Assembly (NCBI GenBank): GCA_001775965.1
Contig: MEZG01000068.1
Span: 1 to 41,533 of the forward strand
DNA length: 41,533 nt
Source: Candidatus Bathyarchaeota archaeon RBG_13_60_20
GTDB lineage: Archaea > Thermoproteota > Bathyarchaeia > TCS64
Reading direction: 5' to 3'
The stretch's first letter is position 1. Each line of letters begins with the position of its first letter. The notes beneath the pieces were generated by a model. That model had not been told where the DNA came from and made no database searches. It saw only the letters and a program-made list of their open reading frames with translations. A program made the position numbers and the translations under genes. Shown piece after piece: positions 2,856 to 36,457 of this stretch.

Positions 2856-2889
2856 ACATTTTATTTTAGTTGAAGTTGAATTTATCTCT

Positions 2890-5470: not shown

Positions 5471-5500
5471 GGGTGAGGATCGCCGCAGCCGGGAATAACG

Positions 5501-6058: not shown

Positions 6059-6094
6059 TAACCCACCACTGAGCCGGTAGCTGAGATATCAGAG

Positions 6095-11941: not shown

Positions 11942-11976
11942 GCTCGGGCGATCAACTTTAATGGGCTCCGTATGAT

Positions 11977-12786: not shown

Positions 12787-12797
12787 GAGGCTGGGCT

Positions 12798-13613: not shown

Positions 13614-14453
13614 GTGAAGGTCAAGGCAGTCGGCATCAGGACGCGTTACTGGAGACCAGGGACCGATTACGTGGCGGAGATCGTGGGCAGGGTCAAGGGC
13701 CGCGTGGAGGACGGTGATGTGCTCGCCGTCAGCGAGAAGGCGGTGTCCACAGCCTCCGGCCTCATCGTGGACGAGGCGACGACGGAGCCCGGCATGGTCG
13801 CGCGGATTCTCGCGGGCCCTTGGACCAGGAGGATATGGGGCGGGCCCCTTGGGAGGATCACATGCCTCAAGGGGCAGACCCTCCTGAACCTGCGCAATTA
13901 TCCACTCCGCGAGGGGGCCGCCCACAAAGAGGTGGCTCTGCGCATCGCGGGCCTCCTTCAGTCGCTGCGCCACTACTCCGAGGGAGGCATAGACGCCAGC
14001 AACCTCCCCTACTCATACGTGAGCCTACCGCTACCCAACGCCGGCGCGGTGGCTGAGAGGATCAGGGACGCGGTGAAGGCCCGCACGGGCAGGGACGTCA
14101 CAGTGGTCATCGTCGACGGCGACACGACCTTCTCATGGAGGGGCCTTCACCTGGCCCCCCGCAAGGTACAGACGCCCGGCCTGGTGCACCTGGGGGGCTT
14201 CCTGGTCTTCGTCATGGGCAGAGCCCTCGGCCTAAGGCAGCGCCAGACCCCTGTGGCCGTATCGGGCGAACCTATGCCCCCGGACACGGCTCTGTGGCTG
14301 GCCAGGCTTCACCACAGGCTTTGCGGCCGCGGGGCCGGCAGGACCGTGTGGAGCATGTCGGCCAGGCTGGAGACCTCGCTGACGGGCGTAACATGGGAGA
14401 TGCTGGAATCTGTGAGGCACTACCCCGTGACCCTCATACGGTTCGTGGACTAG
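13614..14453 (+). CDS. Coenzyme F420-0:gamma-glutamyl ligase (CofE)-like family protein; substrate uncertain
   Basis: DGDVLAVSEKAVS, GGIDASNLP and VTVVIVDGD motifs of the F420_ligase fold. Confidence 0.78.
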   Translation: MKVKAVGIRTRYWRPGTDYVAEIVGRVKGRVEDGDVLAVSEKAVSTASGLIVDEATTEPGMVARILAGPWTRRIWGGPLGRITCLKGQTLLNLRNYPLREGAAHKEVALRIAGLLQSLRHYSEGGIDASNLPYSYVSLPLPNAGAVAERIRDAVKARTGRDVTVVIVDGDTTFSWRGLHLAPRKVQTPGLVHLGGFLVFVMGRALGLRQRQTPVAVSGEPMPPDTALWLARLHHRLCGRGAGRTVWSMSARLETSLTGVTWEMLESVRHYPVTLIRFVD

Positions 14454-16012: not shown

Positions 16013-16018
16013 ACGTGA

Positions 16019-16972
16019 TCAACCCTCGCGGATGACTGCGCCCACGTTGTCGGCGGCCGCGACGAATGCTTCGCCCCGCCCGTCCTTGTTGAGGAACCGT
16101 TCGAGGGACGCTGCAAGCCTCCCCGCCTGGGCCCGTCCTTCGGCCAGCCCGTAGAGAGCCGGCCCCCATGAGCTCTGGCCAGCGCCAAGGGCCCCCTCCG
16201 CCAGGAGGTAGTTCACCCCCGCCTCGATCCCGGGGTGGCTGTAGACGCCCCCCTGGACCTTGGCCCAGTACGAGCCGAACATAGTGTCCAGCTTGGTCAT
16301 GGCGTCCCCGAACCTCTCTATGTCAGGCTCTATGATGGACGGGATCATCTGGAGGAGCACCAGCCTAGCGACGTCGGCGACGACCTCGGCCGGCGGCGGC
16401 TCCAAGGCCCTGAATGCGGCCTTCTCCTGCTCGCCGCTGACCCCCCTCTTGATGTCCGGGATGCCTATAACGAACAGCCAGTCGTCAGGCACCCTGTGCC
16501 TGAAGACCAGTGGCGGCACGGCATCCCTGCGCGTCAAGGCGTGGCCACCGTCTACAATAAAGCCTCCCCCAAGGAAGGCGTGGACCCCTACCCCTGAGAC
16601 TCTGCTGCGGCCGAAGCGGACGGCGATCTCCTCCGGCTCTAGGCTCAGGTCGTGTAATCGTGCCAGGGCGGTGCCCAGGGCCATGACCAGCTGGGTGCCT
16701 GAGCCGAAGCCCGTGTGCTCGGGTATGTCCTCCACGATCTCCACGTCCACGCCAGAATCGACGCCGCCGTCCCTCAGGAGGGTCTCGACGATGTTCGCGG
16801 CCCTGTCCGACCTGGCGCCCCTGATCCTCGTCTCGCCGCTGTCACTGACCTTCACTGTGAGCCGCGGCCGATCCACGGCGACCCCCACGCTCCCGTGGAT
16901 CCTGCCCAGGTCGCCCCTCATGTCCACTATACCGAACTGCAGCCTCGACGGGGTGGTTATGCTGATCTCTAC
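16019..16972 (-). CDS. mptG: Beta-ribofuranosylaminobenzene 5'-phosphate (RFAP) synthase, GHMP superfamily; start codon uncertain
   Basis: TPSRLQFG, PEHTGFGSGTQL, SGVGVHAFLGGGFIVDGGH and GQSSWGP motifs; H4MPT gene context. Confidence 0.9.
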   Translation of the reverse strand, partial: VEISITTPSRLQFGIVDMRGDLGRIHGSVGVAVDRPRLTVKVSDSGETRIRGARSDRAANIVETLLRDGGVDSGVDVEIVEDIPEHTGFGSGTQLVMALGTALARLHDLSLEPEEIAVRFGRSRVSGVGVHAFLGGGFIVDGGHALTRRDAVPPLVFRHRVPDDWLFVIGIPDIKRGVSGEQEKAAFRALEPPPAEVVADVARLVLLQMIPSIIEPDIERFGDAMTKLDTMFGSYWAKVQGGVYSHPGIEAGVNYLLAEGALGAGQSSWGPALYGLAEGRAQAGRLAASLERFLNKDGRGEAFVAAADNVGAVIREG

Positions 16973-17616
16973 GCCGTTACCCTCCAGCTTGGTATCATGT
17001 CTTCTAGCTTGTCCACTACCGCGTGCTCGGGGGAGCCCTGTGGCGATACCCGCCTCACGGTCGCCGTGCACTCATCTATCTTCCGGATCAGCGCCTCGGC
17101 TTCCCCTCTCCGCCCCTGCTCGCTGAACGCCTTGACTCTCGTCGCGTGTATCACCGCCTCAACGGCCTGGTTCCTCCCCCTGCTGAAGACCGTGGGGTAC
17201 GCCTCGCCCACCGTTATCTTGACTGGCGTGGCGGTGAATAAACCCCTTTCGCCGAGTGTGGATGACTCCTGTTTCACCTCGACGATGATCGTTGAATCCG
17301 CCCCCATCAGCCTCATGTCGGGCTCCACGTGCGGCTGGTCCTCGATCTCGTCCTTAAAGGCCGTGGCTAGGAAGAGCAGGGGATCGAGGGTGGTGTTGAT
17401 GGAAGCCCTGCCTCCTCTCATCAGGTTCGCGTAGGTGGCGCTGGTCCTGTAGGGGCTCAGTCCGAGGTGCCGCCCCATCAGTCTGACGCCCATGGGCGCG
17501 GCGTTGAACGAGCCGTCGCTGTTCACCGTGACCAGTATTGTCTCCACTACGGCGCCCTGGGTGAAGCCCATCTTCGCAAGCGTCCCGATCAGATCAGACA
17601 TATCTGTGGAGGCCAA
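16969..17616 (-). CDS. DUF447 family protein (H4MPT-linked; FMN split-barrel-like)
   Basis: ETILVTVNSDGSFNAAPMGV, TSATYANL and RGRNQAVEAVIHATRV motifs; start could be ATG 17601. Confidence 0.85.
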   Translation of the reverse strand: MASTDMSDLIGTLAKMGFTQGAVVETILVTVNSDGSFNAAPMGVRLMGRHLGLSPYRTSATYANLMRGGRASINTTLDPLLFLATAFKDEIEDQPHVEPDMRLMGADSTIIVEVKQESSTLGERGLFTATPVKITVGEAYPTVFSRGRNQAVEAVIHATRVKAFSEQGRRGEAEALIRKIDECTATVRRVSPQGSPEHAVVDKLEDMIPSWRVTA

Positions 17617-17655
17617 AGGTGTATACAGTAAAGGCTATGCGGGTTTACTAAAAAA

Positions 17656-18660
17656 TTATGGGGGTTCTAGGGGGATCATGTAGTCGCGGGCTCCACCTAG
17701 AACGACTCTGAGGCGACCATCCGGGCCCCTGACCTTCTCCAGTGTACCCCGTATCTCCACCCTCTCCCCCGCCAAGGCCTGCTCAGTGAACTTGCCCCTG
17801 TAGCTCACGGCCTCGCTCACCTGCCCCAGCCCCTCGGGTTCAACGGGTTCAAGCATGCCTAACTGGTAGCTGCAAGGCGTGAATATGGAGCACGAGGAGT
17901 CCGTGACTCTGGCTCTGAAGACGGCCTCGCCGACGGGGGCTGAGGGGGCGGCATCGGGCTCAGGCCTCAGGAGCCGTATGAAGTAGTCTCTGCCGTCGAC
18001 CCTGCCGTGCAGCACCTTCCTGACCTCTACCTCCGCCAGGGCGTCCAGATCGACGCCCGCCTTGCCCCATCTGCGTAACAGGACCTCCTTGACCGTCTCA
18101 GCGTCGTACGGCTGAACCCAGCCCTTCCTGCTTCTCAGCAGCCTCAGCGCCTTGTAGACTGAGCGGCCTTCGTCCGCCCCGTACACGTTGAGGTCCACGT
18201 CGGAGCCTTCCCGGTTGAGGCCAATGAGAAGCGACCCCGATACGCCGAAGCTCCTTGTGGGCACGCCGCTTCCATTGCTTAGGGCCTCGACCAGCCTCTT
18301 GACCGTCGCCTCAAGGCCGGGCTGAGGCTTCTGGAGAACATGCCCAAGCCTCTCCCTGGGGTCGTACATCCTCTCGATGCGTTTAAGGGGCACGGTCTGC
18401 AGGGTGAGGCCGAGCATAGGCACGTGGTTCAGGTATTGGGGGTGGCGGAGCCTCAGGTACTCGGTGGTCTCGTCGGGGTCGCTCACCCTCCTGTACCTGA
18501 CGCCGTCGAGGACCCTATCGCCCTCCTCATCTGGGATGTAGCGGAGGTAGGCGATGACCATGCTGTCTGGGTGTCTGCTCCCCTTCACAGCGAAGAAGAG
18601 GCCCTCGGCGGTCCTGATGTAGTCGCCCTCGTTGTACTCCTGGAAGCTGATCATACCCAA
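17656..18660 (-). CDS. Predicted nucleotidyltransferase (Pol-beta superfamily, COG1665-like), paralog 1
   Basis: FGVSGSLLIG...SDVDLNVYG (GS...DxD) motif; N-terminal EGLFFAVKGSRHP...AYLRY; C-terminal OB-like GERVEIRGTLEKV. Confidence 0.82.
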   Translation of the reverse strand: MGMISFQEYNEGDYIRTAEGLFFAVKGSRHPDSMVIAYLRYIPDEEGDRVLDGVRYRRVSDPDETTEYLRLRHPQYLNHVPMLGLTLQTVPLKRIERMYDPRERLGHVLQKPQPGLEATVKRLVEALSNGSGVPTRSFGVSGSLLIGLNREGSDVDLNVYGADEGRSVYKALRLLRSRKGWVQPYDAETVKEVLLRRWGKAGVDLDALAEVEVRKVLHGRVDGRDYFIRLLRPEPDAAPSAPVGEAVFRARVTDSSCSIFTPCSYQLGMLEPVEPEGLGQVSEAVSYRGKFTEQALAGERVEIRGTLEKVRGPDGRLRVVLGGARDYMIPLEPP

Positions 18661-18692
18661 GTATTAACTTGTGACTGGCGGGCCCTATATAT

Positions 18693-19655
18693 TTGAGCAG
18701 CGTGGTGCAGCCATTGGGCGGTGTAGGCAGCTTGGTGGGTGGGTGCGCGTCCCTTGCGGCCCTCCTGGAGGTGTCGGCGTACCCTAAGCCTGGGAACGTG
18801 CACCGCCTTAGGGACTTCGATGGGACGCGCTACGAGCACTTCCTCGCGGGAGGAGTCTCCCTGGCCCCGTGGATGGCCGCGCTCGCCGACGAAGGCGCCC
18901 GCGTCAAGGCACAGGGCGGCGGCTGGGAAGGCATCCGACTCGGAGAGCACATACTTGGGGCGGTGGAAGACATGACGCGGTGGCAGAAGGGCGGGAACAC
19001 CCACCTGGGCGTCATCCTTCTCTTCGCGCCCGTGGCCGCTGCGGCAGGCGCCTCGCTGGAGAACGGCAGAGCGGATCCCAAGAGGCTCAGGGAGAACCTG
19101 TTGGACGCCGTGGCCGCCGCGACGCCCGGCGACGCAGCCGACATCTACAGGGCCATAGGCGCGGCTATGACCAGGGAGAACTTGGGCTCCGTTGAAAGGC
19201 TCGACGTCTCGGACTCCTCGTCCATAGACTACATACTGAGGCGGGGTGTCACGCCCCTTGAGATATTCCAGGAATGCTCGGGGCGGGACGCGATATGCGG
19301 AGAGTGGGCCACGGGCTTCAGTGTGACGTTCGAGGAGGGGTACACCTACCTGGCGGATCGGCTGCTTTCCGGCTCTGTTAACGACTCTGTAGTGGACACG
19401 TTCCTGCGCATCCTCTCAAGGCACCCTGACTCGCTGATACGGAGGAAGAGGGGGGAGGAGGCCGCGAGAGCTGTGAGCGAGAAGGCCCAGAGGGTTCTGG
19501 ACAGCGGGGGCGCCTCAAGCGACGAGGGGCGAAGGCTGCTGCTCGAATTGGACGACGAGCTTCAGGCTGGAGGGGGGGAGCTGAACCCTGGCACCTCCGC
19601 CGACCTTACGGCGTCCTCACTGTTCGTGAACCTGCTAGGCGGGTGGAGGCCCTAG
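18693..19655 (+). CDS. Triphosphoribosyl-dephospho-CoA synthase (CitG) family protein, archaeal H4MPT-linked type
   Basis: LLEVSAYPKPGNVHR, GNTHLGVILLFAP, PDSLIRRKRG and LNPGTSADLTA motifs. Confidence 0.9.
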   Translation: MSSVVQPLGGVGSLVGGCASLAALLEVSAYPKPGNVHRLRDFDGTRYEHFLAGGVSLAPWMAALADEGARVKAQGGGWEGIRLGEHILGAVEDMTRWQKGGNTHLGVILLFAPVAAAAGASLENGRADPKRLRENLLDAVAAATPGDAADIYRAIGAAMTRENLGSVERLDVSDSSSIDYILRRGVTPLEIFQECSGRDAICGEWATGFSVTFEEGYTYLADRLLSGSVNDSVVDTFLRILSRHPDSLIRRKRGEEAARAVSEKAQRVLDSGGASSDEGRRLLLELDDELQAGGGELNPGTSADLTASSLFVNLLGGWRP

Positions 19656-20083
19656 GACGAGTACTGGCGCAGGTAGTGGGGGTACGTCTCGCAGAACTCC
19701 CTGATGCCCTCCTCGGTCACAAGGCCCCTCACGGTCCTGTGCTCCTGGACCCCGAGGCAGCCGATGCCGTACTTCCTCATCACGCCTAGGGCGTCGTTCA
19801 GGGGCGTGTCTATGTCCACAGTGATGAGGGGCACCGATACCAGGTCCTTCACGAGGAGGCTGGCCTTGTCCTCGGTCTCGATGAGCCACCTCATGATGTC
19901 CTTGTTCGTTATTAGGCCGATGGGGTCCTGGTCCTCGTAGACGATGAGCGCCTCGTAGTCCTCCCCCATGAGCTTGCGGGTCACCTCGATGAGCCTATCC
20001 TCGGCCCTTGCCATTGGGGGAGCCTTGTTCATGAGGACCCTGCAGGGGAGGCCGCAGAACTCGGAGTTAAGCTGGATGCCCAT
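19652..20083 (-). CDS. CBS domain pair protein
   Basis: PIGLITNKDI, VKDLVSVPLITVDIDTPLNDALGVM and GLVTEEGI motifs. Confidence 0.85.
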   Translation of the reverse strand: MGIQLNSEFCGLPCRVLMNKAPPMARAEDRLIEVTRKLMGEDYEALIVYEDQDPIGLITNKDIMRWLIETEDKASLLVKDLVSVPLITVDIDTPLNDALGVMRKYGIGCLGVQEHRTVRGLVTEEGIREFCETYPHYLRQYSS

Positions 20084-20227
20084 ACCTTCCTCAGCAAATA
20101 CTATACTTACACGTGTTTATTTAGTTTTCAATCATGAAAACCCGTCAAATTCTCGCAAGCTGAATTTGATGTCAGGCTCACCTGAAAAAAGTTATAGCCT
20201 CAGATCCCTCACCTCTACTGATGGCTA

Positions 20228-20734
20228 TTGGACTCAGGTAGCGGCATCATGTTCGTGGGAAAGAAGACGAAGCCAAACGCGGTCTACGAGGCGATAAGGG
20301 CACATCTACCGGCTGACAGCGGCAAGGTGGTCATAGCCAGCCACAAGGGGAAGTCGGCGCTGAAGCTGGCCGAGACCCTCGGGAAGCAGGCCCAAGTGGT
20401 GAGCGTCACCGAGTTCACCTACGACGACGACACCAAGAAGGAGATGAAGAAGCTGAACGTCGTCCCCGTGGAGAAGGCCGAGCTGCCCGTACAGGACGAC
20501 AGGGGGATGAGGGAGACCCTGCTCATGTTCGGGTCGGGTGTGAAGGCAGCCCTGGAGGTGGCCACAGTCGCGTCGGGGAAGAAGCTGGTGAAAGGCGAGT
20601 TCATAGTCGTCGCGGGGGAGAAGGAGGGCTTCGACACCGTGCTGCTCCTGGACACGGAGCACCCCCAGAAGGAGCAGATATCTGACCCGCTGAAGCACAT
20701 CAAGGTGAAGAGGTTCATCGCTCTCCCTGAGTAG
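20228..20734 (+). CDS. Pyruvate kinase C-terminal-like stand-alone protein (COG1751/DUF1867-like)
   Basis: KVVIASHKGKSALKLAE, ETLLMFGSGVKAALEVA and GFDTVLLL pattern; GAAAAAAGTTATA promoter-like element ~30 bp upstream. Confidence 0.7.
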   Translation: MDSGSGIMFVGKKTKPNAVYEAIRAHLPADSGKVVIASHKGKSALKLAETLGKQAQVVSVTEFTYDDDTKKEMKKLNVVPVEKAELPVQDDRGMRETLLMFGSGVKAALEVATVASGKKLVKGEFIVVAGEKEGFDTVLLLDTEHPQKEQISDPLKHIKVKRFIALPE

Positions 20735-20820
20735 CCGCAAGGCGCAGATGTTTTATCGGCTCTCTTCAGTTGTATAGTTGGCTTATCTTGTCAGACGTAA
20801 GCAAAACCGTTTCAGGCTCC

Positions 20821-21081
20821 ATGGAGGAGACCAAGGAGAGGCACAGGAGGTACCTTAGGGCCATCAATAGCCCCGTCAGGAGGGGAATCCTACGCGCGCT
20901 GAAGGAGGGACACGCAACGGCGGAGGCTCTGGTAAAGGCTACTGGCCTGGACGGCAAGACCCTGGGCTGGCACATGAAGCTCCTCGAGTACGGGTACTGC
21001 GTCGAGGCTAGGAGCACCGCCGAGGGAGAGGTCTACGTCTTGACCAGGGAGGGTGAAGTCGTGGACTTCATGGACAGGTAG
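20821..21081 (+). CDS. Small winged helix-turn-helix (ArsR-like) transcriptional regulator
   Basis: HRRYLRAINSPVRRGILRALKEG...TGLDGKTLGWHMKLLE...YVLTREG; ATG 20821 (alternative TTG 20770). Confidence 0.85.
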   Translation: MEETKERHRRYLRAINSPVRRGILRALKEGHATAEALVKATGLDGKTLGWHMKLLEYGYCVEARSTAEGEVYVLTREGEVVDFMDR

Positions 21082-21109
21082 TCACCGAGTAGCGAGCCTC
21101 AGACTGATT

Positions 21110-21193
21110 ACATAACACGCATTATGTGCTACAATTAACATAAAATCTGCTACTTATGACACCGCAGATGTTTTTAGGTGCGGTAAAGCATCT
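21110..21193. promoter_or_regulatory. Putative operator/promoter region of the mch-fwd operon with inverted repeats
   Basis: ACATAA-N6-TTATGT (21110-21127), CATAA-N10-TTATG (21139-21158) and ACCGCA-N12-TGCGGT (21161-21184) enclosing TTTTTA; AT-rich relative to the coding DNA. Confidence 0.5.
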
Positions 21194-21211
21194 CTGATAG
21201 GTGTCCTAATC

Positions 21212-22159
21212 GTGCTGAGCGTCAACAGGCTGGCATACGAGCTTGTGTCGGAACTTGTCAAGAGGAAGGAGTACTACAGGGTAGAGGTCGATAAGCTGCC
21301 GTCGGGGGCCACCGTGGTAGACACGGGGGTGGAGGCCCACGGCGGATACGAGGCGGGCCTCATGGTCACCCGCATAGCCATGGGAGGGGCCGGGAGCGCG
21401 CACCTCTCGTATGCAGACTACGGCGGGGTCGGGCTGCCCTCGGTGGTGGTCTCCACGGACTGCCCGGCTGTAGCTCTCTTCGGGGCCCAGCTTGCTGGGT
21501 GGAAGATAAAGCCTGAGGGGTACTCGGCGGACAGCTCGGGCCCGGCCCGCGCGCTGGCCCTGAAGCCCAAGGAGGTGTACCAGAAGATAGGCTACAGGGA
21601 CGAGTCGGACGTGGCCGTCATCCTGCTGGAGACCGAGGAGAAGCCCCCGGACTCGGCGGCCCACTACATAGCCGAGAGGTGCAACGTGAAGCCCGAGAAC
21701 GTGTACATGGTCCTCACCTCCACCAGGTCCATGGCGGGGATGGTGCAGATATCGGGCAGGATAGTCGAGACAGGGCTCTTCAGGCTCGACGTGCTAGGCC
21801 TGGACCCCAAGAAGGTGCTTTACGGGGCGGGGTACGCGCCTATCATGCCGGTCCACGTAGACGCGGGGAAGGCCATGGGCAGGGCCGAGGATGCCCTGAC
21901 TTACGGTGGGGTCACCACGTACTTGGTGGATGAGGCCGAGGACAAGCTCAGGGAGGTCGCCGAGAAGGCGCCCAGCAGCAACTGCAAGGACTACGGCAAG
22001 ACCAGCTACGAAATCTACAAGGCCGTGGACTTCGACTTCACCAGGATCGACCCGGCCCTCTTCGCCCCCGCGGCCATATCCCTGACCTCTGCCCAGACCG
22101 GGGCGACCTTCACCTACGGCAAGGTCAACGACCGTATAATCTTACATTCATTGAAGTAG
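21212..22159 (+). CDS. mch: Methenyltetrahydromethanopterin cyclohydrolase
   Basis: LSVNRLA, GAQLAGW, SGPARALALKPKE, VQISGRIVETG, SSNCKDYGK and DFTRIDPALFAPA motifs. Confidence 0.96.
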   Translation: MLSVNRLAYELVSELVKRKEYYRVEVDKLPSGATVVDTGVEAHGGYEAGLMVTRIAMGGAGSAHLSYADYGGVGLPSVVVSTDCPAVALFGAQLAGWKIKPEGYSADSSGPARALALKPKEVYQKIGYRDESDVAVILLETEEKPPDSAAHYIAERCNVKPENVYMVLTSTRSMAGMVQISGRIVETGLFRLDVLGLDPKKVLYGAGYAPIMPVHVDAGKAMGRAEDALTYGGVTTYLVDEAEDKLREVAEKAPSSNCKDYGKTSYEIYKAVDFDFTRIDPALFAPAAISLTSAQTGATFTYGKVNDRIILHSLK

Positions 22160-22163
22160 ATCG

Positions 22164-22571
22164 GTGTCTGAGATGAACGGGATCGAGGTTACACTGATTT
22201 CGGGGAGGACGGCGAGGCAGGGCATAGGCCTGGAAGAGGGCAAGACGTCCCAGGGCTACATCAAGAGCGTTAATGAGGTTAGCCTGTGCCCAGAGGACGC
22301 AGCGAGCCTGGGCCTCAGCGGGGACGAACCTGTGACGGTGGCCACGGAGCACGGCAGCGTGGTGGCGCACTGGAGGGTGGACAAAGGGCTGGCCCGGGGA
22401 ACCGCGTTCTTCCCCTACGGGCCGTGGGCCAACCAGGTGTACGCGTCGTCCACGGACGGCACCGGCATGCCCCAGTTCAAGGGGATAAGGGCCACCCTAT
22501 CCCCAGCCGCGGGCGGCAAGGTGCCGTCACTCCAGGAGATCGTGGAGTCCATGAGGAGAGCGGAGCATTGA
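22164..22571 (+). CDS. fwdD: Formylmethanofuran dehydrogenase subunit D (molybdopterin dinucleotide binding)
   Basis: LISGRTARQG, FFPYGPWAN and TDGTGMPQFKGI motifs. Confidence 0.93.
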   Translation: MSEMNGIEVTLISGRTARQGIGLEEGKTSQGYIKSVNEVSLCPEDAASLGLSGDEPVTVATEHGSVVAHWRVDKGLARGTAFFPYGPWANQVYASSTDGTGMPQFKGIRATLSPAAGGKVPSLQEIVESMRRAEH

Positions 22572-23854
22572 AGCACGAGGACGTGGTCTGCCCCTTCTGC
22601 GGGTGCCTGTGCGACGACCTGGAGGTGACCGTGGAGGACGGCCACATCGTGGGCGTCAAGAACGCGTGCGGCATATCCCGGTCCAAGTTCATGAGCCACG
22701 GCCTCAACCGGGTCTCCGCCCCCACAGTGGAGGGGAAGGAGGCCTCGCTCGAAGAGGCCGTGAGGGAGTCGGTGGGTATACTCTCAGGAGCCAGGAGGCC
22801 CCTGGTTTACGGCCTCAGCTCCACGGAGTGCGGCGCCATCAGCAAGGCGGTCGAGCTGGCGGAGGCCACGGGCGGCGTCCTGGACAACACCTCGTCCGTG
22901 TGCCATGGCCCCACGATACTGGCCCTCCAGCAGGTGGGCGAGAGCAAGGCGACCCTGGGCGAGATCAGGAACAGGGCCGACCTCATCATCTTCTGGGGGA
23001 GCAACCCCACGGAGGCCCACCTGCGCCACATCACAAGGTACAGCGGGACGGCTAAGGGCATGTACGTGCCTGAGGGCAGGAAGGGCCGCAGGATCATAGT
23101 GGTCGACGTCAGGGAGACGGGCACCTCGAAGATGGCCGATCAGTTCATCAAGGTGGAGCCCAACGGGGACTTCGAGTTGCTCGAGGCGCTGAGGGCTACG
23201 GTTAGGGGCGTGGCGCTGCGGGCGGAGGCCGTGGCGGGGGTGCCCATGGACCAGGTCAGGGCGCTGGCCGAGGTCATGAAGGGGGCCAGGTTCGGGGTCG
23301 TGTTCTTCGGGCTGGGGCTCACCCAGAGCGAGGGCAGGCACATGAACATAGACGCGGCCGTCGGCCTGGTGGCCGAGCTGAACAGGCACACCAAGTTCCT
23401 GCTCACCCCCATGAGGGGCCACTACAACGTGGCGGGGGCCAATGCGGTGACCACCTGGCAGACGGGGTACCCCTACGCGGTGGATTTTAGCCGTGGCTAC
23501 CCCAGGTACAACCCGGGGGAGTACACCTCGGTGGACATGCTGGCCAGGGGCGAGGCCGACGCGGCCCTGGTGCTGGCCTCGGACCCGGCGTCCACGTTCC
23601 CCGTGGACGCTGCCAGGGGCTTGGCCAAGATACCGGTGATCACCCTTGAGCAGAAGATCACTCCCACATCCATGCTGAGCAGGGTGGTGATACCGGTGGC
23701 CACCGCGGGCATAGAGGCCGAGGGAACGGCCTACAGGATGGACGGGGTCCCCATAAGGCTGAGGAAGCTGGTGGAGCCCACTGAGGGGGTCCACTCGGAC
23801 GAGGAGGTGCTCGGGATGATCCTTGAGGGGCTTAAGGGAGGCGCCGAGAAGTGA
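22568..23854 (+). CDS. fwdB: Formylmethanofuran dehydrogenase subunit B (W/Mo-pterin, Cys-ligated)
   Basis: TTG 22568 overlaps the fwdD stop (TTGA); CPFCGCLCDD, SSVCHGP, TLGEIRNRAD, PMRGHYNVAG and GTAYRMDGVP motifs. Confidence 0.96.
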   Translation: MKHEDVVCPFCGCLCDDLEVTVEDGHIVGVKNACGISRSKFMSHGLNRVSAPTVEGKEASLEEAVRESVGILSGARRPLVYGLSSTECGAISKAVELAEATGGVLDNTSSVCHGPTILALQQVGESKATLGEIRNRADLIIFWGSNPTEAHLRHITRYSGTAKGMYVPEGRKGRRIIVVDVRETGTSKMADQFIKVEPNGDFELLEALRATVRGVALRAEAVAGVPMDQVRALAEVMKGARFGVVFFGLGLTQSEGRHMNIDAAVGLVAELNRHTKFLLTPMRGHYNVAGANAVTTWQTGYPYAVDFSRGYPRYNPGEYTSVDMLARGEADAALVLASDPASTFPVDAARGLAKIPVITLEQKITPTSMLSRVVIPVATAGIEAEGTAYRMDGVPIRLRKLVEPTEGVHSDEEVLGMILEGLKGGAEK

Positions 23855-25554
23855 AGGAGCTTGCGATCAGGAACGGCTACGTCTTCGACCCTCTGAACGG
23901 CGTCGACGGCGAGAAGATGGACATCCTCCTCAGCGGGGGCAGGGTCGTTGAGAAGGTGAAGCGCGGCGCCGAGGAGATTGACGCCTCGGGGATGGCGGTG
24001 ATGCCCGGCGGCGTGGACCTCCACAGCCACATCGCGGGCAGCAAGATCAACATCGGGCGCCTCATGAGACCCGAGGACCACAGGAGGGACCAGGTGCCCA
24101 AGGGCAGGGTCACCCGGAGCGGCGTGGGCTACAGCTGCCCCAGCACCTTCGTCACCGGGTACAGGTACGCACAGATGGGTTACACAACGGTCATGGAGGC
24201 GGCCATGCCGCCCATAACAGCCAGGCACGTCCACGAGGAGCTGGCCGACACCCCCATCATAGACAAGGGCGCCTTCACCCTCATGGGCAACAACTACTTC
24301 ACCCTCAAGTACGTCCGCGACGGCGACATGGAGAAGCTGAAGGCCTTTGTCGCCTGGCTGCTCCGGGCCACCCGCGGCTACGCCGTCAAGATTGTGAACC
24401 CGGGCGGCGTGGAGAACTGGAAGTGGGGCCGCAACGTCCACGGCCTGGACGGCAACGTGGAGGACTACGGCATCACGCCTAGGCAGATCATATCCAGCCT
24501 GGCAAGGGTGAACGAGGAGCTGGGCCTGCCCCACACCATCCACCTCCACTGCAACAACCTGGGGGTGCCCGGCAATTACCAGACCACCATCGACACCATG
24601 GACGTGGCCAAGACGATTAAACCCAGGGACGAGAGGAAGACGACCATACACGTCGTCCACTGCCAGTTCAACGCCCTGGCGGGCAACAACTGGATGAACG
24701 TCAGGTCGGGAGCCCCCAAGATAGCCAGGTACGTGAATGGGAACCCCCACGTGACCTTGGACCTGGGCCAGGTCATCTTCGGGGACACCACAACAATGAC
24801 TGGGGACGGCCCCTGGCAGTTCAACCTCTGGAACATGACGGGCAACAAGTGGGTCAACAGCGACGTGGAGATGGAGGCGGGGGCCGGCGTAGTCCCCTAC
24901 ACGTTCAAACCAAACAACCCGGCCAACAGCGTCCAGTGGGGCATAGGCATCGAGCTGGCCCTCCTGGTGAAGGACCCATGGAGGGTCTATATGACCACAG
25001 ACCACCCCAACGGGGGTCCCTTCACCCACTACCCCGAGGTCATCGCGTGGCTGATGAGCAGGAAGGCCAGGACCGACGCAATGAACGCCATGAACAAGGC
25101 GGTGATGAAGCGCACCGGCCTCATAGACAATTACAGGGAGTACACGTTCAGCGAGATGGCCATAGCCACCAGGGCCGGCACGGCAAGGGCGCTTGGCCTG
25201 GAGGGCAAGGGCCACCTGGGGCAGGGGGCCGACGCGGACGCCGCCGTTTACAGGGTCAACCCCACCCAATGGCGCCCCAGCCAGTATAAGGAGCTGGAGA
25301 AGGCTTTCAGCAGGGCGGCCTACACAGTCAAGGCTGGCGAGGTCGTGGTCAAGGACGGCGAGGTCGTGGCGACCCCCACGGGGGCCACCCACTGGGTGAA
25401 CGCCAAGGTACCCGAGGACCTCGAGAAAGAGTTCATAAAGGACTTCGAGGCCGATTTCCGGAAGTACTACTCCGTCAGCCTGCGCAACTACCCAGTGGAG
25501 GACGCGTACCTGCCGGCTCAGAGGGTCCACGCGGCGGGAGGTGCCTCGCCGTGA
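23851..25554 (+). CDS. fwdA: Formylmethanofuran dehydrogenase subunit A (amidohydrolase)
   Basis: VDLHSHIAG, RPEDH, GYRYAQMGYTT, VKIVNPGG, HLHCNNLG and TTDHPNGGPF motifs. Confidence 0.97.
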   Translation: MKELAIRNGYVFDPLNGVDGEKMDILLSGGRVVEKVKRGAEEIDASGMAVMPGGVDLHSHIAGSKINIGRLMRPEDHRRDQVPKGRVTRSGVGYSCPSTFVTGYRYAQMGYTTVMEAAMPPITARHVHEELADTPIIDKGAFTLMGNNYFTLKYVRDGDMEKLKAFVAWLLRATRGYAVKIVNPGGVENWKWGRNVHGLDGNVEDYGITPRQIISSLARVNEELGLPHTIHLHCNNLGVPGNYQTTIDTMDVAKTIKPRDERKTTIHVVHCQFNALAGNNWMNVRSGAPKIARYVNGNPHVTLDLGQVIFGDTTTMTGDGPWQFNLWNMTGNKWVNSDVEMEAGAGVVPYTFKPNNPANSVQWGIGIELALLVKDPWRVYMTTDHPNGGPFTHYPEVIAWLMSRKARTDAMNAMNKAVMKRTGLIDNYREYTFSEMAIATRAGTARALGLEGKGHLGQGADADAAVYRVNPTQWRPSQYKELEKAFSRAAYTVKAGEVVVKDGEVVATPTGATHWVNAKVPEDLEKEFIKDFEADFRKYYSVSLRNYPVEDAYLPAQRVHAAGGASP

Positions 25555-26477
25555 GCTTCAAGCACAACGGGGTGGACGTCGAGGACACCTTCGCGGAGGG
25601 CTTCGGCATGTGGGGTAGCCGCATCATCATAACGGCCGCGTCCGAGAGGTGGGCCACCACAGCCGCCGGCTCTATGACGGGGTTCGCCACCAGTGTCATC
25701 GCATGCGACTGCGAGGCCGGCGTGGAGTCTTCGGTAGCGCCGGACAGTACCCCCGATGGGCGCCCCGGCGTCGCCGTCATGGTTTACGGGTTCAGCAAGG
25801 GCAAGCTGTCCGAGAGCATGTTGAGCCGGATGGGCCAGTGTGTCCTCACATGCCCCAGCACGGCCGTGTTCAATGGACTGCCGGAGGAGGAGGCCGACGA
25901 GATGCTAGACATCGGGAAGAGCCTCAGGTTCTTCGGGGACGGGTACCAGGTCAAGATGAGGATGGGGGACGGCTGGCACCAGAGGCGCCGCTTCTGGAGG
26001 ATACCCGTCATGGAGGGCGAGTTCCTGGTGGAGGAGAAGATGGGGGCCAAGAAAGCGGTGGCCGGGGGCAACTTCCTGGTGATGGGAGAGACACAGGACG
26101 CGGTCCTGAGGGCAGCTGAGGCGTCCATAGACGCCATCCACACGGTGCCCGGCGTGGTAACGCCGTTCCCCGGCGGCCTCTGCAGGAGCGGCAGCAAGGT
26201 GGGCTCCACATACAAGTTCCTGAAGGCGGCCACCAACACGCCCTTCTGCCCTACCATAAAGAACAGTGTCAAGGGCAGCAAGGTGCCGTCGGGCGCCAAC
26301 TCGGTCATCGAGGTGGTGATCAACGGTCTCAACGAGGCGTCTGTGAAGCGGGCCATGGGGGTGGGCGTGGACGCCGCCACCAGGGTTCCGGGTGTCACAT
26401 GGATCACGGCGGTCAACTTCGACGGCAAGCTGGGGAAGTTCAAGATGGGGCTGAGGGACAGCCTGGAGGCGATCTGA
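25551..26477 (+). CDS. ftr: Formylmethanofuran--tetrahydromethanopterin N-formyltransferase
   Basis: EDTFAEGF, TGFATSVIACDCEAG, TPDGRPG, GQCVLTCPSTA, FFGDG, RIPVMEGEF and RSGSKVGS motifs. Confidence 0.97.
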   Translation: MSFKHNGVDVEDTFAEGFGMWGSRIIITAASERWATTAAGSMTGFATSVIACDCEAGVESSVAPDSTPDGRPGVAVMVYGFSKGKLSESMLSRMGQCVLTCPSTAVFNGLPEEEADEMLDIGKSLRFFGDGYQVKMRMGDGWHQRRRFWRIPVMEGEFLVEEKMGAKKAVAGGNFLVMGETQDAVLRAAEASIDAIHTVPGVVTPFPGGLCRSGSKVGSTYKFLKAATNTPFCPTIKNSVKGSKVPSGANSVIEVVINGLNEASVKRAMGVGVDAATRVPGVTWITAVNFDGKLGKFKMGLRDSLEAI

Positions 26478-26478
26478 T

Positions 26479-27327
26479 ATGGATAAGCTGGTGCTAACGC
26501 CTAGGGGATTCAGCAGAGTACCCTTGGAGGCGGAGGTGATAACGCCAGACGCCTTCGCCGGCAAGTCCGTAAAGGAGATTAGGGCCCTGAGGGTCCACTA
26601 CGGCAACAGGGAGGTGGAGATGAGCGAGTATATCCATGTCCAGGGTAAGGTGGCCGACGCCCCGGTCGACCAGCTCATCGTCGTCGACGGGGACGCAAGG
26701 CACATCAAGTATATCGGCAGGGGGATGACCGCGGGTCGAATAGTGGTCCAGGGCGACGCCGGTATGCACACGGGCTCCCAGATGAGCGGCGGGGACATAA
26801 CTGTGGCGGGAGACGCAGGCGACTGGACCGGCGCCGAGATGAGGGGCGGCCTCCTCAGGGTGCTGGGCGACGCCGGGAACCTCCTAGGCGCCGCGTACAG
26901 GGGCAGCAGCGAGGGCATGACCGGCGGATGCATAATTGTCAACGGCAGCGCCGGTTCCGAGGTCGGCAGCTTCATGAGGAGAGGCATGATGGTGGTTGAG
27001 GGCGCCACTGGTCCCTTCACAGGCGTACATATGAACGGCGGCGAGATATTCGTCTTCGGCCCCCTGGGCAGGCGCGCCGGGGCCCAGGCCAAGGGCAACG
27101 GCGGCTTCATAGCGGCCCTCGGCGGCGCCCGGGAGGTGTTACCCACCTACGTCTACGAGGCCACCTACGCCCCCGGCTTCATGACGCTCTACATGAGGCA
27201 GCTGGCAGAGAACCTGGGCGTCAAACACGCCGCCAGGTACATCGGGGAGCCCCTCAGGAGGTACAGGGGCGACATGGCCATCGGCGGTAGCGCCGAGATA
27301 CTGGTCGCCGAGAAGGGGGCCCCTTGA
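26479..27327 (+). CDS. fwdC: Formylmethanofuran dehydrogenase subunit C (beta-helix)
   Basis: PLEAEVITPD, repeated GxxMxGG motifs and LGAAYRGSSEGMTGG. Confidence 0.95.
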   Translation: MDKLVLTPRGFSRVPLEAEVITPDAFAGKSVKEIRALRVHYGNREVEMSEYIHVQGKVADAPVDQLIVVDGDARHIKYIGRGMTAGRIVVQGDAGMHTGSQMSGGDITVAGDAGDWTGAEMRGGLLRVLGDAGNLLGAAYRGSSEGMTGGCIIVNGSAGSEVGSFMRRGMMVVEGATGPFTGVHMNGGEIFVFGPLGRRAGAQAKGNGGFIAALGGAREVLPTYVYEATYAPGFMTLYMRQLAENLGVKHAARYIGEPLRRYRGDMAIGGSAEILVAEKGAP

Positions 27328-28196
27328 GGGTAGGCATCATCGCCTCCGACCGCAGGGAGTGGCACGTGGGCCTGCTCTTAAGGGAGCTCAGGGCGAGGGG
27401 AGCCGAGGCTTACCTCCTCCCTGTCACCAGCTTCCGCGCATCCGTAGGCCGCGAGCCGAGGCTCACGGTGAAGGGCTACGGCGTGGACGACTACGACGCG
27501 GTCATCGTGCGCCGAGTACCAGGCGGCTCCGCCGAGCAGGTGTTCTACAGGATGGACGCCCTCCACAGGCTGGAGGACACGGGGGTCCTGGTGGTGAACC
27601 CTGCCCTGAGCATCGAGAGGGCCGTGGACAAGTACTACACCTCGGCGCTGCTTGAGGACGCCGGGATCAGGACGCCCCGCACCGTGGTCACCGAGAGCTT
27701 CGCAGAGGCCATGGTGGCCTACGAGGAGCTGGGAGGCGACGTGGTGGTTAAGCCCCTCTTCGGCAGCCTCGGCATGGGGATAACCAGGGTCTCCGACCCC
27801 GACCTTGCCCACAGGGTGTTCAGGGCCCTGGAGATGACCAGAAGCGTCTACTACGTCCAGGAGTTCATCAGGCACCCCGGCGTCGACCACAGGGTATTCG
27901 TCATCGGGGGCTCTATCGCGGCGTCCATGCGCCGCGTGGCCAGGGGCTGGAAGACCAACATCTCGGGTGGCGGCAGAGCCGAGCCCTATACGCCCAGCGA
28001 AGAGGTCGCCGAGGCGAGCCTCAGGGCCACCGAGAAGCTGGGCCTCATCTACTCAGGCGTCGACATCATAGTCTCGGAGGAGGGGGAGGCGTACGTCGTT
28101 GAGCTCAACAGCACTCCGGGATGGGAGGGCCTTCAATCTGTTACGGAAGTGGACATCGCGGTGCGCCTCGTCGACCACGTGCTGTCACTGATGTGA
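27324..28196 (+). CDS. RimK-family ATP-grasp glutamate ligase (MptN / Orf5-like)
   Basis: GGSAEQVFYRMDALH, ERAVDKY, VVKPLFGSLGMG, YVQEFI, WKTNISGGG and ELNSTPGW motifs. Confidence 0.9.
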   Translation: MRVGIIASDRREWHVGLLLRELRARGAEAYLLPVTSFRASVGREPRLTVKGYGVDDYDAVIVRRVPGGSAEQVFYRMDALHRLEDTGVLVVNPALSIERAVDKYYTSALLEDAGIRTPRTVVTESFAEAMVAYEELGGDVVVKPLFGSLGMGITRVSDPDLAHRVFRALEMTRSVYYVQEFIRHPGVDHRVFVIGGSIAASMRRVARGWKTNISGGGRAEPYTPSEEVAEASLRATEKLGLIYSGVDIIVSEEGEAYVVELNSTPGWEGLQSVTEVDIAVRLVDHVLSLM

Positions 28197-28202
28197 GGGA
28201 CC

Positions 28203-29219
28203 GTGTTGAAGCCGAAGGACAGGGACTTCGTGGAGACCGTCGAGGGGCACCTGTTCTGCGTGGTGGGGTACCTGCACCCCCCGGAAGGCTATACGGCGTA
28301 CCTCAAGTACGTGCCGGCCCCGGTGGGGAAGTGGGGCCGAGGCGAGGCCAGGTACACCAGGACCCTTCCCTTCTACCACGTCTCCCAGGTGGAGAACACG
28401 TACAGTTACCTCAGGGAGAACTACCCCAAGTACCTGATCGACTGTCCCGTACGCGGCTTCACGGTCTCCTATGTGCCCAGGCCCAGCGTCAGGAGGTACT
28501 ACAGGCCCCGGAAGGTACTCAGGGAGATCATGGCTAGGGGCGCAGTGGACCCCCTGGAGGAGAAGCTGCTGAGGCTGGCGGGGCTTCTCACGGATGAGTC
28601 GGGCGTAAGGGGCCTAGGCGTGACGGGCTCCATATTGACTGGCATCCACAACCCCGACTTCTCCGACATTGACCTCACAGTCTACGGTGCCGGCCCGTCT
28701 AGGAGGCTCAAGGACGCCGTGCTGAGGTTGAGGAACGAAGGCGACAGGGTGCAGCCTCCAACGCGTCAAGAGATAGAGTCGTGGTGCCGCGAGAGGATCA
28801 GCAAGTTCCCCCTGACTGTGGATGAGCTGAGACGGGTCGCCGAGACGAGGTGGAACTACGGGTTCTACACGGGCACCTACTTCTCGGTGCACCCCACCAG
28901 GGCGGACAGGGAGATCACCGAGGCGTACGGGGATAACACGTACCGCAGGGTCGGAGAGGTCAGCGGCTCGGCGACGGTGGCCGATGCCTCCGAGTCCATG
29001 TTCCTGCCCGCGTTCTACCGTGTCGAGGACGCCGCGCTGCCCGGCGGCGTCGAGGCGGAGCGCCTGGTCTCCTACGAGGGGCTCTACGGCGGCGTATTCG
29101 CTGAGGGGGATCGGGTAGAGTTCAGAGGCGCCTTGGAAAAGGTGGAGGGAAAGAACCCGGGCCACCAGGTTGTGGTCGGGGGGGCCGGCTCCCCAGCCGG
29201 CTACATAAGGTGGGCCTAG
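28203..29219 (+). CDS. Predicted nucleotidyltransferase (Pol-beta superfamily, COG1665-like), paralog 2
   Basis: LGVTGSILTG...SDIDLTVYG motif; N-terminal DRDFVETVEGHLFCVVGYLHPP...AYLKY; C-terminal GDRVEFRGALEKV. Confidence 0.82.
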   Translation: MLKPKDRDFVETVEGHLFCVVGYLHPPEGYTAYLKYVPAPVGKWGRGEARYTRTLPFYHVSQVENTYSYLRENYPKYLIDCPVRGFTVSYVPRPSVRRYYRPRKVLREIMARGAVDPLEEKLLRLAGLLTDESGVRGLGVTGSILTGIHNPDFSDIDLTVYGAGPSRRLKDAVLRLRNEGDRVQPPTRQEIESWCRERISKFPLTVDELRRVAETRWNYGFYTGTYFSVHPTRADREITEAYGDNTYRRVGEVSGSATVADASESMFLPAFYRVEDAALPGGVEAERLVSYEGLYGGVFAEGDRVEFRGALEKVEGKNPGHQVVVGGAGSPAGYIRWA

Positions 29220-30631: not shown

Positions 30632-30635
30632 AGCT

Positions 30636-31964: not shown

Positions 31965-31969
31965 GCGGG

Positions 31970-33412: not shown

Positions 33413-33413
33413 T

Positions 33414-36304: not shown

Positions 36305-36457
36305 ATGGGTTTTCTCTCCTTGAATCTTATATCATGTTGCATCGTAGTATATTATTTATAGCATTTACAGAAAGTAGCAAGTTTAGCTAGATTTACTAGC
36401 ACTTGATGCAAAATTCTAAAAACCACGCAGCATAATATGTTAAAAGGAGGATTAAAC
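36305..36457. promoter_or_regulatory. AT-rich divergent promoter region cdhA / metF
   Basis: TATA-like TATATTATTTATA (36348-36360); AGGAGG (36445-36450) before TTG 36458; inverted pair TTGCATC (36337-36343) / GATGCAA (36405-36411). Confidence 0.55.

Follow-up and report, generated by a model that had tools for sequence, protein, structure and literature searches.

Why does a gene island for one-carbon metabolism encode two similar nucleotidyltransferases, each set in an operon with genes for a pterin cofactor, and which step could they carry out? The question arises in a stretch of 41,533 nucleotides (here called the window, at its full length) from Candidatus Bathyarchaeota archaeon RBG_13_60_20 (contig MEZG01000068.1, assembly GCA_001775965.1). 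The two proteins, NT1 and NT2, are encoded among genes for tetrahydromethanopterin (H4MPT) and methanofuran (MFR). Methanopterin-type cofactors carry one-carbon units in methanogenesis, anaerobic methane oxidation, the archaeal Wood-Ljungdahl pathway, and bacterial methylotrophy. The side chain of methanopterin ends in an α-linked ribose 5-phosphate that is esterified to 2-hydroxyglutarate; in sarcinapterin, an extra glutamate is added by MptN, and methylotrophs have a dephospho form without the hydroxyglutaryl phosphate. To our knowledge, no gene has been assigned to the late ATP-dependent/hydroxyglutarate step, and a search of the full-text literature found no paper in which the NT family is named or the hydroxyglutarate step is given a gene. 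Genes are still missing for several steps of the side chain: Kaster et al. 2011 (PMC3087415) count, for methanopterin, three known proteins "and estimated 7 unknown proteins".

An earlier note on this DNA had placed both proteins in this pathway and had suggested that they activate the terminal ribose phosphate with ATP. The first part stands: the assignment is well supported by the conservation of operons, by a fused protein, and by phylogenetic profiles, and NT1 and NT2 are likely to carry out a step in methanopterin-type (modified folate) cofactor biosynthesis. The second part is not favored, since the link to a gene of the CitG family points to a ribose that arrives as its 5-triphosphate, in which case the transferase would only release pyrophosphate (PPi). 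As a plausible, still tentative, reading, we suggest that NT1 and NT2 act in the side-chain branch, after the CitG-like enzyme and dependent on it, through a transfer like those of CitX and MdcG.

A three-domain family of paralogous nucleotidyltransferases

The similarity of NT1 and NT2 is far above chance (33% identity over 326 aligned positions, E 2e-41 in BLASTP), and they are clear paralogues. The earlier note had described them as diverged homologs of 334 and 338 aa with three motif segments in common; both reading frames (Table 1) and all three segments are indeed found. In the translations, the N-terminal motif is EGLFFAVKGSRHP...AYLRY in NT1 and EGHLFCVVGYLHP...AYLKY in NT2, the catalytic motif is GVSGS...SDVDLNVYG and GVTGS...SDIDLTVYG, respectively, and the C-terminal motif is SYRG...GERVEIRGTLEKV and SYEG...GDRVEFRGALEKV. 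The genomic context is also as it had been described, with NT1 ahead of DUF447-mptG-DHPS-like and divergent from citG, and with NT2 at the end of the mch-fwd-ftr-rimK operon. NT1 has an alternative start, an ATG at 18654, that gives a 332-aa form; entries in the public protein collection have 332 aa for NT1 (P0123) and 337 aa for NT2 (P0003). The window's own assembly (64% complete) holds exactly two copies of the family, NT1 and NT2, and among the matches listed, their closest named relatives are from Bathyarchaeia.

AlphaFold2 models of NT1 and NT2 (pLDDT 90.5 and 91.7, respectively) have three domains: an N-terminal, beta-rich domain (residues ~1-100), a Pol-β nucleotidyltransferase core (~110-232), and a C-terminal OB fold (~240-334). 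The core of the NT1 model aligns to solved members of the superfamily at Z 7.0-7.5 (TdT 6go3_A, Z 7.5 over 89 residues; Trf4 3nyb_A, Pol X 3au2_A, CutA 6ywn_A, and TUT7 8oef_A, each 7.3), values in a range that can reflect common arrangements. The OB fold has MCM-N, RPA, and SSB proteins as its neighbors at Z ~8 (4me3_A, 8.5; 3e0e_A, 8.1; 3ulp_A, 8.1; 1kaw_A, 7.8). Assignment by profile and structure searches, which the earlier note had proposed as a check, succeeds in part. There is a Pol-β core and a weak match to Pfam PF01909 (NTP_transf_2), in which NT2 (24.5 bits) lies over and NT1 (19.7 bits) under the gathering cut-off of 21, while Foldseek against the PDB gives no match at E ≤ 0.001 (the best is the SSB 3lgj_B, E 6.9e-3) and an NCBIfam scan yields no family for either protein. 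Sequence searches of the PDB with NT1 and NT2 return nothing meaningful, a profile search of it returns chance rows only (E ≥ 0.55), and the whole architecture (N-terminal beta domain, nucleotidyltransferase, and acidic OB domain) is matched by no solved chain. An ESM Atlas search finds only archaeal "hypothetical protein" clusters, and the N-terminal domain, searched there alone, gives no usable match. Database names in the family are "nucleotidyltransferase domain-containing protein", "predicted nucleotidyltransferase", and "hypothetical protein", and the cluster members of 10 family representatives carry no informative names. The family is an uncharacterized three-domain variant of the Pol-β nucleotidyltransferases that, in the searches made, lies outside every curated family and solved structure.

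Of 142 family members, 139-142 have the conserved residue at each position of the GxxGS...SDxD signature, in every subgroup (G142 in 142, S143 in 141, D154 in 142, and D156 in 141). NT1-type proteins also share a set of conserved residues (R197, E212, K215, D/E225, R229, R288, K/R290, and E293) that differs in NT2-type proteins. Since the signature is kept in both types and the conserved charged residues differ, both appear catalytically competent yet specialized. The OB domains are acidic (isoelectric point, pI, 4.93 in NT1 and 4.75 in NT2), as is the family (median pI of whole proteins 5.48 in the NT1 group and 5.82 in the NT2 group, n=32 each), and thus they are ill-suited to nucleic-acid binding.

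The family is large. A profile search of 1.84 billion representatives gives 1689 clusters at E ≤ 1e-3, of which 538 reach E ≤ 1e-30, and 416 of 487 pattern matches in a scan of GTDB genomes were confirmed. Named hosts are Bathyarchaeia, Hecatellales, Nezhaarchaeales, Methanomethylicia, Hadarchaeota, several Asgard groups, Sulfolobaceae, and a few metagenome-assembled genomes (MAGs) labeled as bacteria. A FastTree phylogeny of 142 sequences splits into an NT1 clade and an NT2 clade with support 99. A quick IQ-TREE run on 101 rows (41 of the 142 were removed, each at least 62% identical to a retained row) contains an NT1 core of 56 rows and, as the smallest well-supported set that holds NT2, one of 45 rows, both with support 98 in the Shimodaira-Hasegawa-like approximate likelihood-ratio test (SH-aLRT). 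Because Asgard groups occur in both clades, either the duplication is old or the two genes have traveled together. The single copy of Sulfolobales falls on the NT2 side of the tree on a long branch; there are further long-branch paralogues, and some genomes have up to 5-6 family matches.

Among the bacteria-labeled MAGs, the NT family occurs together with archaeal-type H4MPT genes at L056 and L064 (Anaerolineae) and at L005, L012, and L023 (Desulfaltia, Krumholzibacteriaceae, and Patescibacteria), and two such genomes (G436 and G437) have both NT types. This could be mis-binning or real transfer.

Gene neighborhoods, fusions, and phylogenetic profiles

Gene neighborhoods were counted in the 80 best genome loci; as many of these come from close relatives, a check across GTDB families was added. 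Of the 80 loci, 40 have a CitG-like gene no more than 1.5 kb from an NT gene, 20 have two NT paralogues side by side, and 60 have one or more H4MPT or MFR genes. Ten loci have neither a CitG-like neighbor nor an NT pair nor an H4MPT/MFR gene; four of the ten are contigs shorter than 7 kb. Across families, co-directional CitG and NT genes lie ~30-60 bp apart in at least seven of the Thermoproteota (f4, f23, f26, f29, f30, f32, and f40; two examples are given in Table 1). One of these, f26, is Sulfolobaceae (a protein of its genome G085 is 97% identical to one of Sulfolobus acidocaldarius). The S. acidocaldarius-like genome has a single NT copy in an operon DUF1464-NT-CitG-phosphoesterase, has MptG elsewhere, and lacks Mch and Ftr; DUF1464 and the neighboring genes match none of the NCBIfam models.

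A second line of evidence is provided by fusions and by operons that reach into the early pterin steps. In protein P0354 (505 aa), HPPK (PF01288, E 3e-40) is naturally joined to an NT1-type domain that is 38% identical to NT1 (E 1e-63), and an HPPK gene lies directly 3' of NT1 in two Anaerolineae-labeled MAGs (G436 and G437). At L056, a single operon reads fwdDBA-ftr-fwdC-mch-rimK-NT1-[HPPK+GTP cyclohydrolase]-PTPS-flavoprotein-DHPS-like-DUF447-mptG. In a family without Mch, CitG-DUF447 is present beside MptG, GCHY-1, and MptE (L109; also L104). Since the CitG-like gene clusters with these genes even in lineages that lack Mch, it belongs to the pathway itself. The CitG-like protein of the window scores only 55-64 bits against the CitG and MdcB equivalog models, far under their cut-offs, and so it is neither a canonical CitG nor an MdcB.

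Phylogenetic profiles were drawn up for 251 Thermoproteota genomes with a completeness of at least 80% and for 101 Asgard genomes (Table 2). In the Thermoproteota, NT matches were counted at E ≤ 1e-8 (121 genomes) and MptG matches at E ≤ 1e-15 (95), with CitG (119), Mch (62), and Ftr (65) as listed; four genomes whose only NT match had an E of 9e-5 to 7e-4 (G006, G038, G093, and G139) were dropped from the NT count. NT genes and CitG are both not found in f12 (0 of 36 genomes), f17 (0 of 22), and f20 (0 of 19), and both are present throughout f13 (11 of 11), f19 (10 of 10), and f26 (9 of 9). Among the Asgard genomes, NT is present in 70, CitG in 82, and Mch in 71. The NT family is thus nested within the CitG-bearing genomes, as expected for a step that consumes the CitG product. 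It is tied to the pathway of modified folates of the β-ribofuranosylaminobenzene 5'-phosphate (RFAP) type, most closely to the CitG-like enzyme, and it is not obligatory for that pathway. The earlier note would have been refuted had neighborhoods and profiles shown no link to H4MPT or modified-folate genes; such a link is clearly found.

Table 2. Genomes with and without NT genes and other genes of the pathway
Sample	Gene compared with NT	Both	NT only	Other gene only	Neither	phi
251 Thermoproteota	CitG	114	7	5	125	0.90
251 Thermoproteota	MptG	91	30	4	126	
251 Thermoproteota	Mch	57	64	5	125	
251 Thermoproteota	Ftr	59	62	6	124	
101 Asgard	CitG	65	5	17	14	
101 Asgard	Mch	63	7	8	23	

A role in methanofuran synthesis is disfavored: 62 of the 121 NT-bearing Thermoproteota are without Ftr and 64 are without Mch. 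With Ftr and Mch each missing from half of its hosts, the family is linked neither to methanofuran nor to the one-carbon enzymes themselves.

Several further features of these genomes were seen. Thirty of the 121 NT-bearing Thermoproteota, most of them with Mch, Ftr, and CitG and several of them 95-100% complete, give no TIGR00144 (MptG) match better than ~1e-4 (for example, G012, G130, G144, and G201 of f3, G016/G024/G032 of f23, and G040/G048/G056 of f18); their RFAP synthase may have diverged or been replaced, or it may have escaped the search's first-look filter. In a sample of 81 genomes from a Thermococci-type phylum, Mch and NT are each found in G251 alone (a Thermococci-labeled MAG, the genome of L051), and it has no strong MptG match; it represents either an unusual lineage or a mixed bin. 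Some genomes of this type encode a complete malonate decarboxylase operon (MdcA, biotin carboxylase, acyl carrier protein (ACP), carboxyltransferases, MdcG, and MdcB; L114:6400-13930 and L115), and the "CitG" matches of these genomes (E ~1e-74) are therefore true MdcB and not of the type linked to methanopterin.

Other genes recur beside the family. Those for calcineurin-like phosphoesterases lie directly 3' of CitG in the Sulfolobus-like operon and directly 3' of NT in f13 (L096:7659-8132; L093:10074-10688) and are candidates for a step of side-chain dephosphorylation. The bracketed gene of L056 (L056:11026-12585), which is followed by PTPS and the flavoprotein in the methanopterin operon, encodes a 519-aa fusion of a bacterial-type HPPK with a GCHY-1 (folE2/MptA-type) GTP cyclohydrolase. 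One protein of the Bathyarchaeia family f6 joins an NT2-type domain to an M20 peptidase (L103:1850-4159, plus strand, 769 aa), and in a relative (L106), an M20 gene (2518-3876, minus strand) adjoins an NT gene (L106:3945-4991); both lie within clusters of three NT paralogues. M20 enzymes include carboxypeptidases that release glutamate, and the fusion and adjacency hint at work on cofactor tails. In f19, f24, and f34, which lack Mch, tandem NT1-NT2 genes are always flanked by an open reading frame of 500-700 aa whose C-terminal part resembles Kdo/APH kinases (L099:10999-12711, L100:10195-11706, L101:7405-8988, L092:10981-12591, and L102:6708-8819); in one case, its N-terminus is a weak Pol-β nucleotidyltransferase match. 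A PmbA/TldD gene follows in these loci. The CitG-like proteins of f19 (L104:2453-3769 and L105:3537-4901) have an N-terminal extension of 156-173 aa without a Pfam match; the extension of 156 aa has no similarity to the NT family and was ruled out as a relative of it.

The proposed step in the side chain and its rivals

By analogy with CitG and MdcB, which make 5-triphosphoribosyl compounds from ATP, the CitG-like enzyme would use ATP as the ribosyl donor, releasing adenine, and would place a 5-triphospho-α-D-ribosyl group on the 5-OH of the aminophenyl-deoxyribitol-pterin intermediate. With NT1/NT2, a hydroxyl (in methanopterin, the 2-OH of 2-hydroxyglutarate) would then attack the α-phosphate; PPi would depart, and the mature side chain would have its phosphodiester. 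Glutamate would subsequently be added to the tail by the MptN-like ligase, whose gene lies just upstream of NT2. A mechanism of the CitX/MdcG type is the simplest one given the tight link to CitG and the ribose-phosphate ester in the side chain, and the NT family probably plays, in the making of a cofactor, the part that CitX and MdcG play for carrier proteins. Because they have the same catalytic motif, differ in conserved charged residues, and are adjacent in many genomes, NT1 and NT2 probably work as a pair, either as a putative heteromer or in two consecutive transfers; the frequent adjacency of NT1 and NT2 genes would suit the heterodimer suggested in the earlier note. If this mechanism holds, lineages with CitG and without NT would stop at ribose or decorate the ribose differently. 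The orf7 product of the methylotroph islands is presumably a CitG homologue. Matsen et al. 2013 describe such islands with orf5, orf7, orf19-22, and mptG. In its widest form, the proposal holds that the CitG-like enzyme and the NT1/NT2 pair are the missing late enzymes of methanopterin synthesis, that the α-ribosyl 5-phosphate comes from ATP, as a 5-triphosphoribosyl group, and not from phosphoribosyl pyrophosphate (PRPP), that the phosphodiester is made by PPi release on a new kind of three-domain Pol-β nucleotidyltransferase acting as an ancient heteromeric pair, and that Bathyarchaeia, Asgard archaea, and Sulfolobales make phosphodiester-tailed folates, while Thermococci and methylotrophic bacteria stop at ribose. 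We consider this combined claim possible, if rather doubtful.

A number of observations weigh against the proposed CitX/MdcG-like step. The published pathway, a scheme from cell extracts, uses PRPP plus a separate ATP-dependent hydroxyglutarate step. In the Thermococci-type sample, CitG is present in 78 of the 81 genomes and MptG in 66, and NT is present in one; beyond G251, 77 of the 80 further genomes have CitG without NT, as do 17 of the 101 Asgard genomes. The presence of CitG and MptG without NT fits an optional tail only if the cofactors of these organisms lack the phosphodiester. Classical methanogens are the organisms whose methanopterin does bear the hydroxyglutaryl phosphate, yet none occurs among the 80 best loci or among the matches listed, in searches of which none was aimed at methanogens. 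The co-occurrence counts come from related genomes that are not independent, and they should be read as a pattern, their statistical weight being overstated. The need for two paralogues, and for up to 5-6 copies, in the formation of one phosphodiester is unaccounted for. A third catalytic carboxylate is not common to NT1 and NT2: position 225, the candidate, is D/E in 74 of 91 NT1-core members and variable in NT2 (E7, P6, R5...). Structural Z values of 7-8 lie in the range that can reflect common arrangements, according to the search tool's own warning for values under 8. Finally, the kinship with the proposed counterparts is slight. No homology to CitX is detectable (no Pfam match at E ≤ 0.1; hhalign probability against E. 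coli CitX 0.13%). An archaeal MdcG (L114) has GVWGS..SDLDL where the family has GVsGS..SDIDL (hhalign E 0.0038, probability 8.8%, 32% identity over 65 columns), a weak similarity that is confined to the GxxGS..SDxDL motif and comes without a PF10620 match.

Several other activities would also place NT1 and NT2 in or near this pathway. Context, fusion, and profiles fix the pathway and not the step, and the proteins could serve another step or a lineage-specific decoration apart from the hydroxyglutarate phosphodiester (for example, with a different head group, or a hydroxyl nucleotidylylated elsewhere in the side chain). The extra paralogues fused to or beside M20 peptidases (L103 and L106) and the genomes with up to 5-6 copies suggest several related tail reactions; no positive evidence speaks for any one alternative step, the link to CitG would still have to be explained, and we regard this as unlikely. 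An early role is improbable, even with a fair list of points in its favor. Here, NT1/NT2 would adenylylate the phenolic OH of 4-(β-D-ribofuranosyl)hydroxybenzene 5'-phosphate, made by MptG from 4-hydroxybenzoate; aspartate would displace the nucleotide, and PurB would then yield the aniline. The Pol-β nucleotidyltransferases GlnE and MntA adenylylate phenol groups of tyrosine, we know of no gene assigned to the ATP-dependent amination step, and direct use of para-aminobenzoate would explain a patchy absence, as in Thermococci. NT1 also heads the MptG operon, NT and MptG are both present in 91 and both absent in 126 of the 251 Thermoproteota, one lineage (L100) has PurB and PurA genes at 3-5 kb from its NT pair, and the second half of the route, the conversion of β-RFSA-P to β-RFA-P, is confirmed as an activity of PurB from M. 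jannaschii (PMC3261824). However, that gene proximity is confined to the one lineage, it is CitG and not MptG that is the most constant neighbor across distant families, the Sulfolobus-like operon pairs NT with CitG and has MptG elsewhere, NT2 follows a ligase for the tail, and the 30 NT-bearing genomes without a strong MptG match would have to be accommodated. About as improbable is the version of the earlier note, in which a terminal ribose 5-phosphate derived from PRPP is adenylylated to a pyrophosphate of the ADP-ribosyl type and 2-hydroxyglutarate displaces AMP, one paralogue activating and the other transferring. It draws on the same context and profiles as the CitX/MdcG-like step, agrees with the cell-extract scheme of a PRPP step followed by an ATP-dependent hydroxyglutarate step, and suits the differing conserved residues of the two paralogues; it offers no function for the CitG-like gene, tightly linked as that gene is. 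The known partners of CitG, CitX and MdcG, release PPi from a triphosphate, and Pol-β nucleotidyltransferases normally give nucleoside monophosphates to hydroxyls and not to phosphates.

Explanations outside the pathway fare worse. NT1/NT2 could follow the canonical logic of CitG and CitX, with a CitG-like enzyme that makes triphosphoribosyl-dephospho-CoA and with NT1/NT2 attaching the prosthetic group to a carrier protein, and there are true MdcB-MdcG-ACP operons in archaea (L114) and a CitG-family gene adjacent to NT1. In the loci examined, though, no ACP-like gene (CitD/MdcC) lies near NT1/NT2, the window's CitG-like protein falls far short of the CitG and MdcB equivalog cut-offs, and CitG-like genes cluster with DUF447, MptG, MptA, and MptE, which together make this explanation very improbable. 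It is equally hard to credit that NT1/NT2 are directed to RNA or DNA (in tailing, repair, or tRNA modification) and lie near cofactor genes by chance. The OB fold does resemble SSB, RPA, MCM-N, and the anticodon-binding domains of aminoacyl-tRNA synthetases (Z ~8), and the core has TdT, Pol X, Trf4, and TUTases as its neighbors (Z 7.0-7.5), yet these Z values are in the common-arrangement range, the OB domains, at pI 4.75-4.93, are acidic, operons, fusion, and profiles tie the family to pterin genes in more than one phylum, and the absence of matches in f12 (36 genomes), f17 (22), and f20 (19) is unlike a housekeeping RNA enzyme.

The analysis links a large family, known only as "nucleotidyltransferase" or "hypothetical", to a pathway in two archaeal phyla, and it provides a concrete candidate enzyme pair (CitG-like plus NT) with a concrete proposed reaction. 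S. acidocaldarius, with its single NT copy in an operon with CitG, is a genetically tractable host. If the CitX/MdcG-like step is true, a textbook cofactor pathway would be completed, the origin of its ribose phosphate would be revised, and the family would be a marker for the kind of modified folate made by uncultured archaea.

Genes of the window and comparison with known systems

The genes around NT1 and NT2 are listed in Table 1. The NT2 start is 7 nt past the MptN-like rimK gene. The TATATAT element between NT1 and the CitG-like gene is possibly an archaeal TATA box common to both, as judged from its letters. Among the RNA runs listed, none covers positions 14450-20083 of the window. The arrangement in which a CofE-like gene converges on the DHPS-like gene is kept in many Bathyarchaeia loci, and at L055 and L059, the CofE-like gene is present between rimK and NT1. 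As the CofE-like protein of the window scores far under the CofE cut-offs, it may glutamylate another cofactor. The remainder of the window encodes, at 29216-36304, 10109-13595, and 36437-37381, a complete archaeal-type carbon monoxide dehydrogenase/acetyl-CoA synthase (cdhD, cdhG, cdhC, cdhB, and cdhA), a RACo activase, two CooC-like ATPases, and an MTHFR-like protein, which together with the methyl-branch genes form a Wood-Ljungdahl island; POR is also encoded in this remainder.

Table 1. Features of the window, with two examples of CitG-NT neighbors from other genomes
Feature	Position	Strand	Details
NT1, three-domain nucleotidyltransferase	17656..18660	-	334 aa, TTG start; heads the NT1-DUF447-mptG-DHPS-like operon
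NT2, three-domain paralogue of NT1	28203..29219	+	338 aa, GTG start; closes the mch-fwdDBA-ftr-fwdC-rimK operon
CitG-like gene (ATP:dephospho-CoA triphosphoribosyl transferase family)	18693..19655	+	PF01874 E 1.1e-71, 242 bits; divergent from NT1
TATATAT element	18686..18694		in the divergent NT1/CitG intergenic region of ~50 bp (sequence read)
DUF447 protein	16969..17616	-	second gene in the NT1 operon; PF04289 E 1.7e-21
MptG, β-ribofuranosylaminobenzene 5'-phosphate synthase	16019..17071	-	NF040726 207.7 bits; TIGR00144 182.6 bits (cut-off 113.5)
DHPS-like protein (DUF6513 + Pterin_bind + DUF4346)	14450..16012	-	TIGR00284 372 bits (cut-off 256.65)
CofE-like gene (F420-0:gamma-glutamyl ligase family)	13614..14453	+	convergent on the DHPS-like gene
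RimK-family ligase nearest MptN (tetrahydromethanopterin:α-L-glutamate ligase)	27324..28196	+	NF040720 265 bits (cut-off 350, not reached); TIGR00768 196 bits
mch, fwdD, fwdB, fwdA, ftr, fwdC (H4MPT/MFR one-carbon genes)	21212..27327	+	MCH E 1.2e-109; FwdB TIGR03129 564 bits; FTR E 7.8e-57; same operon as rimK and NT2
CitG-NT neighbors, genome G239	NT 22250-23230; CitG 23273-24217		
CitG-NT neighbors, genome G016	NT 4232-5227; CitG 5264-6208		

With the Pol-β nucleotidyltransferase superfamily (PF01909; TdT, Pol X, Trf4, CutA, and TUT7), NT1 and NT2 share the core fold and the G[GS]...DxD signature. They differ from it in the weakness of their matches (19.7 and 24.5 bits; Z 7.0-7.5) and in their own three-domain layout, and the gene context of NT1/NT2 is one of cofactor biosynthesis and not of nucleic-acid metabolism. 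Likewise, their OB domains have the topology of SSB/RPA-like folds and not the basic character (pI 4.75-4.93). Another archaeal cofactor, F420, acquires its tail through CofC and CofD, in a reaction sequence that relies on nucleotide activation and in which a phosphodiester makes the link to a 2-hydroxy acid; CofC has a MobA-like fold and activates the hydroxy acid itself, which sets it apart from NT1/NT2.

The nearest functional parallels are sought in the partners of CitG. CitX and MdcG move a phosphoribosyl compound to a hydroxyl with release of PPi, a reaction of the nucleotidyltransferase type. CitX (PF03802), the proposed functional analogue, resembles NT1/NT2 as the gene partner of a CitG-family gene, and the adjacency of citX and citG is seen in E. 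coli; it differs in having 183 aa, one domain, and a protein serine as its acceptor, where NT1/NT2 have ~335 aa, three domains, and, as proposed, a small hydroxy acid. MdcG (PF10620) is also the partner of a CitG-family gene (MdcB), in archaea as well (L114), and the weak motif alignment noted above, which counts for the proposed step, is in register. It has neither an N-terminal beta domain nor an OB fold, ACP serves as its acceptor, and its operon contains decarboxylase subunits and not pterin genes. What unites CitX and MdcG as a class is their CitG-family partner, and the NT family likewise adjoins, and co-occurs with, a CitG-family gene.

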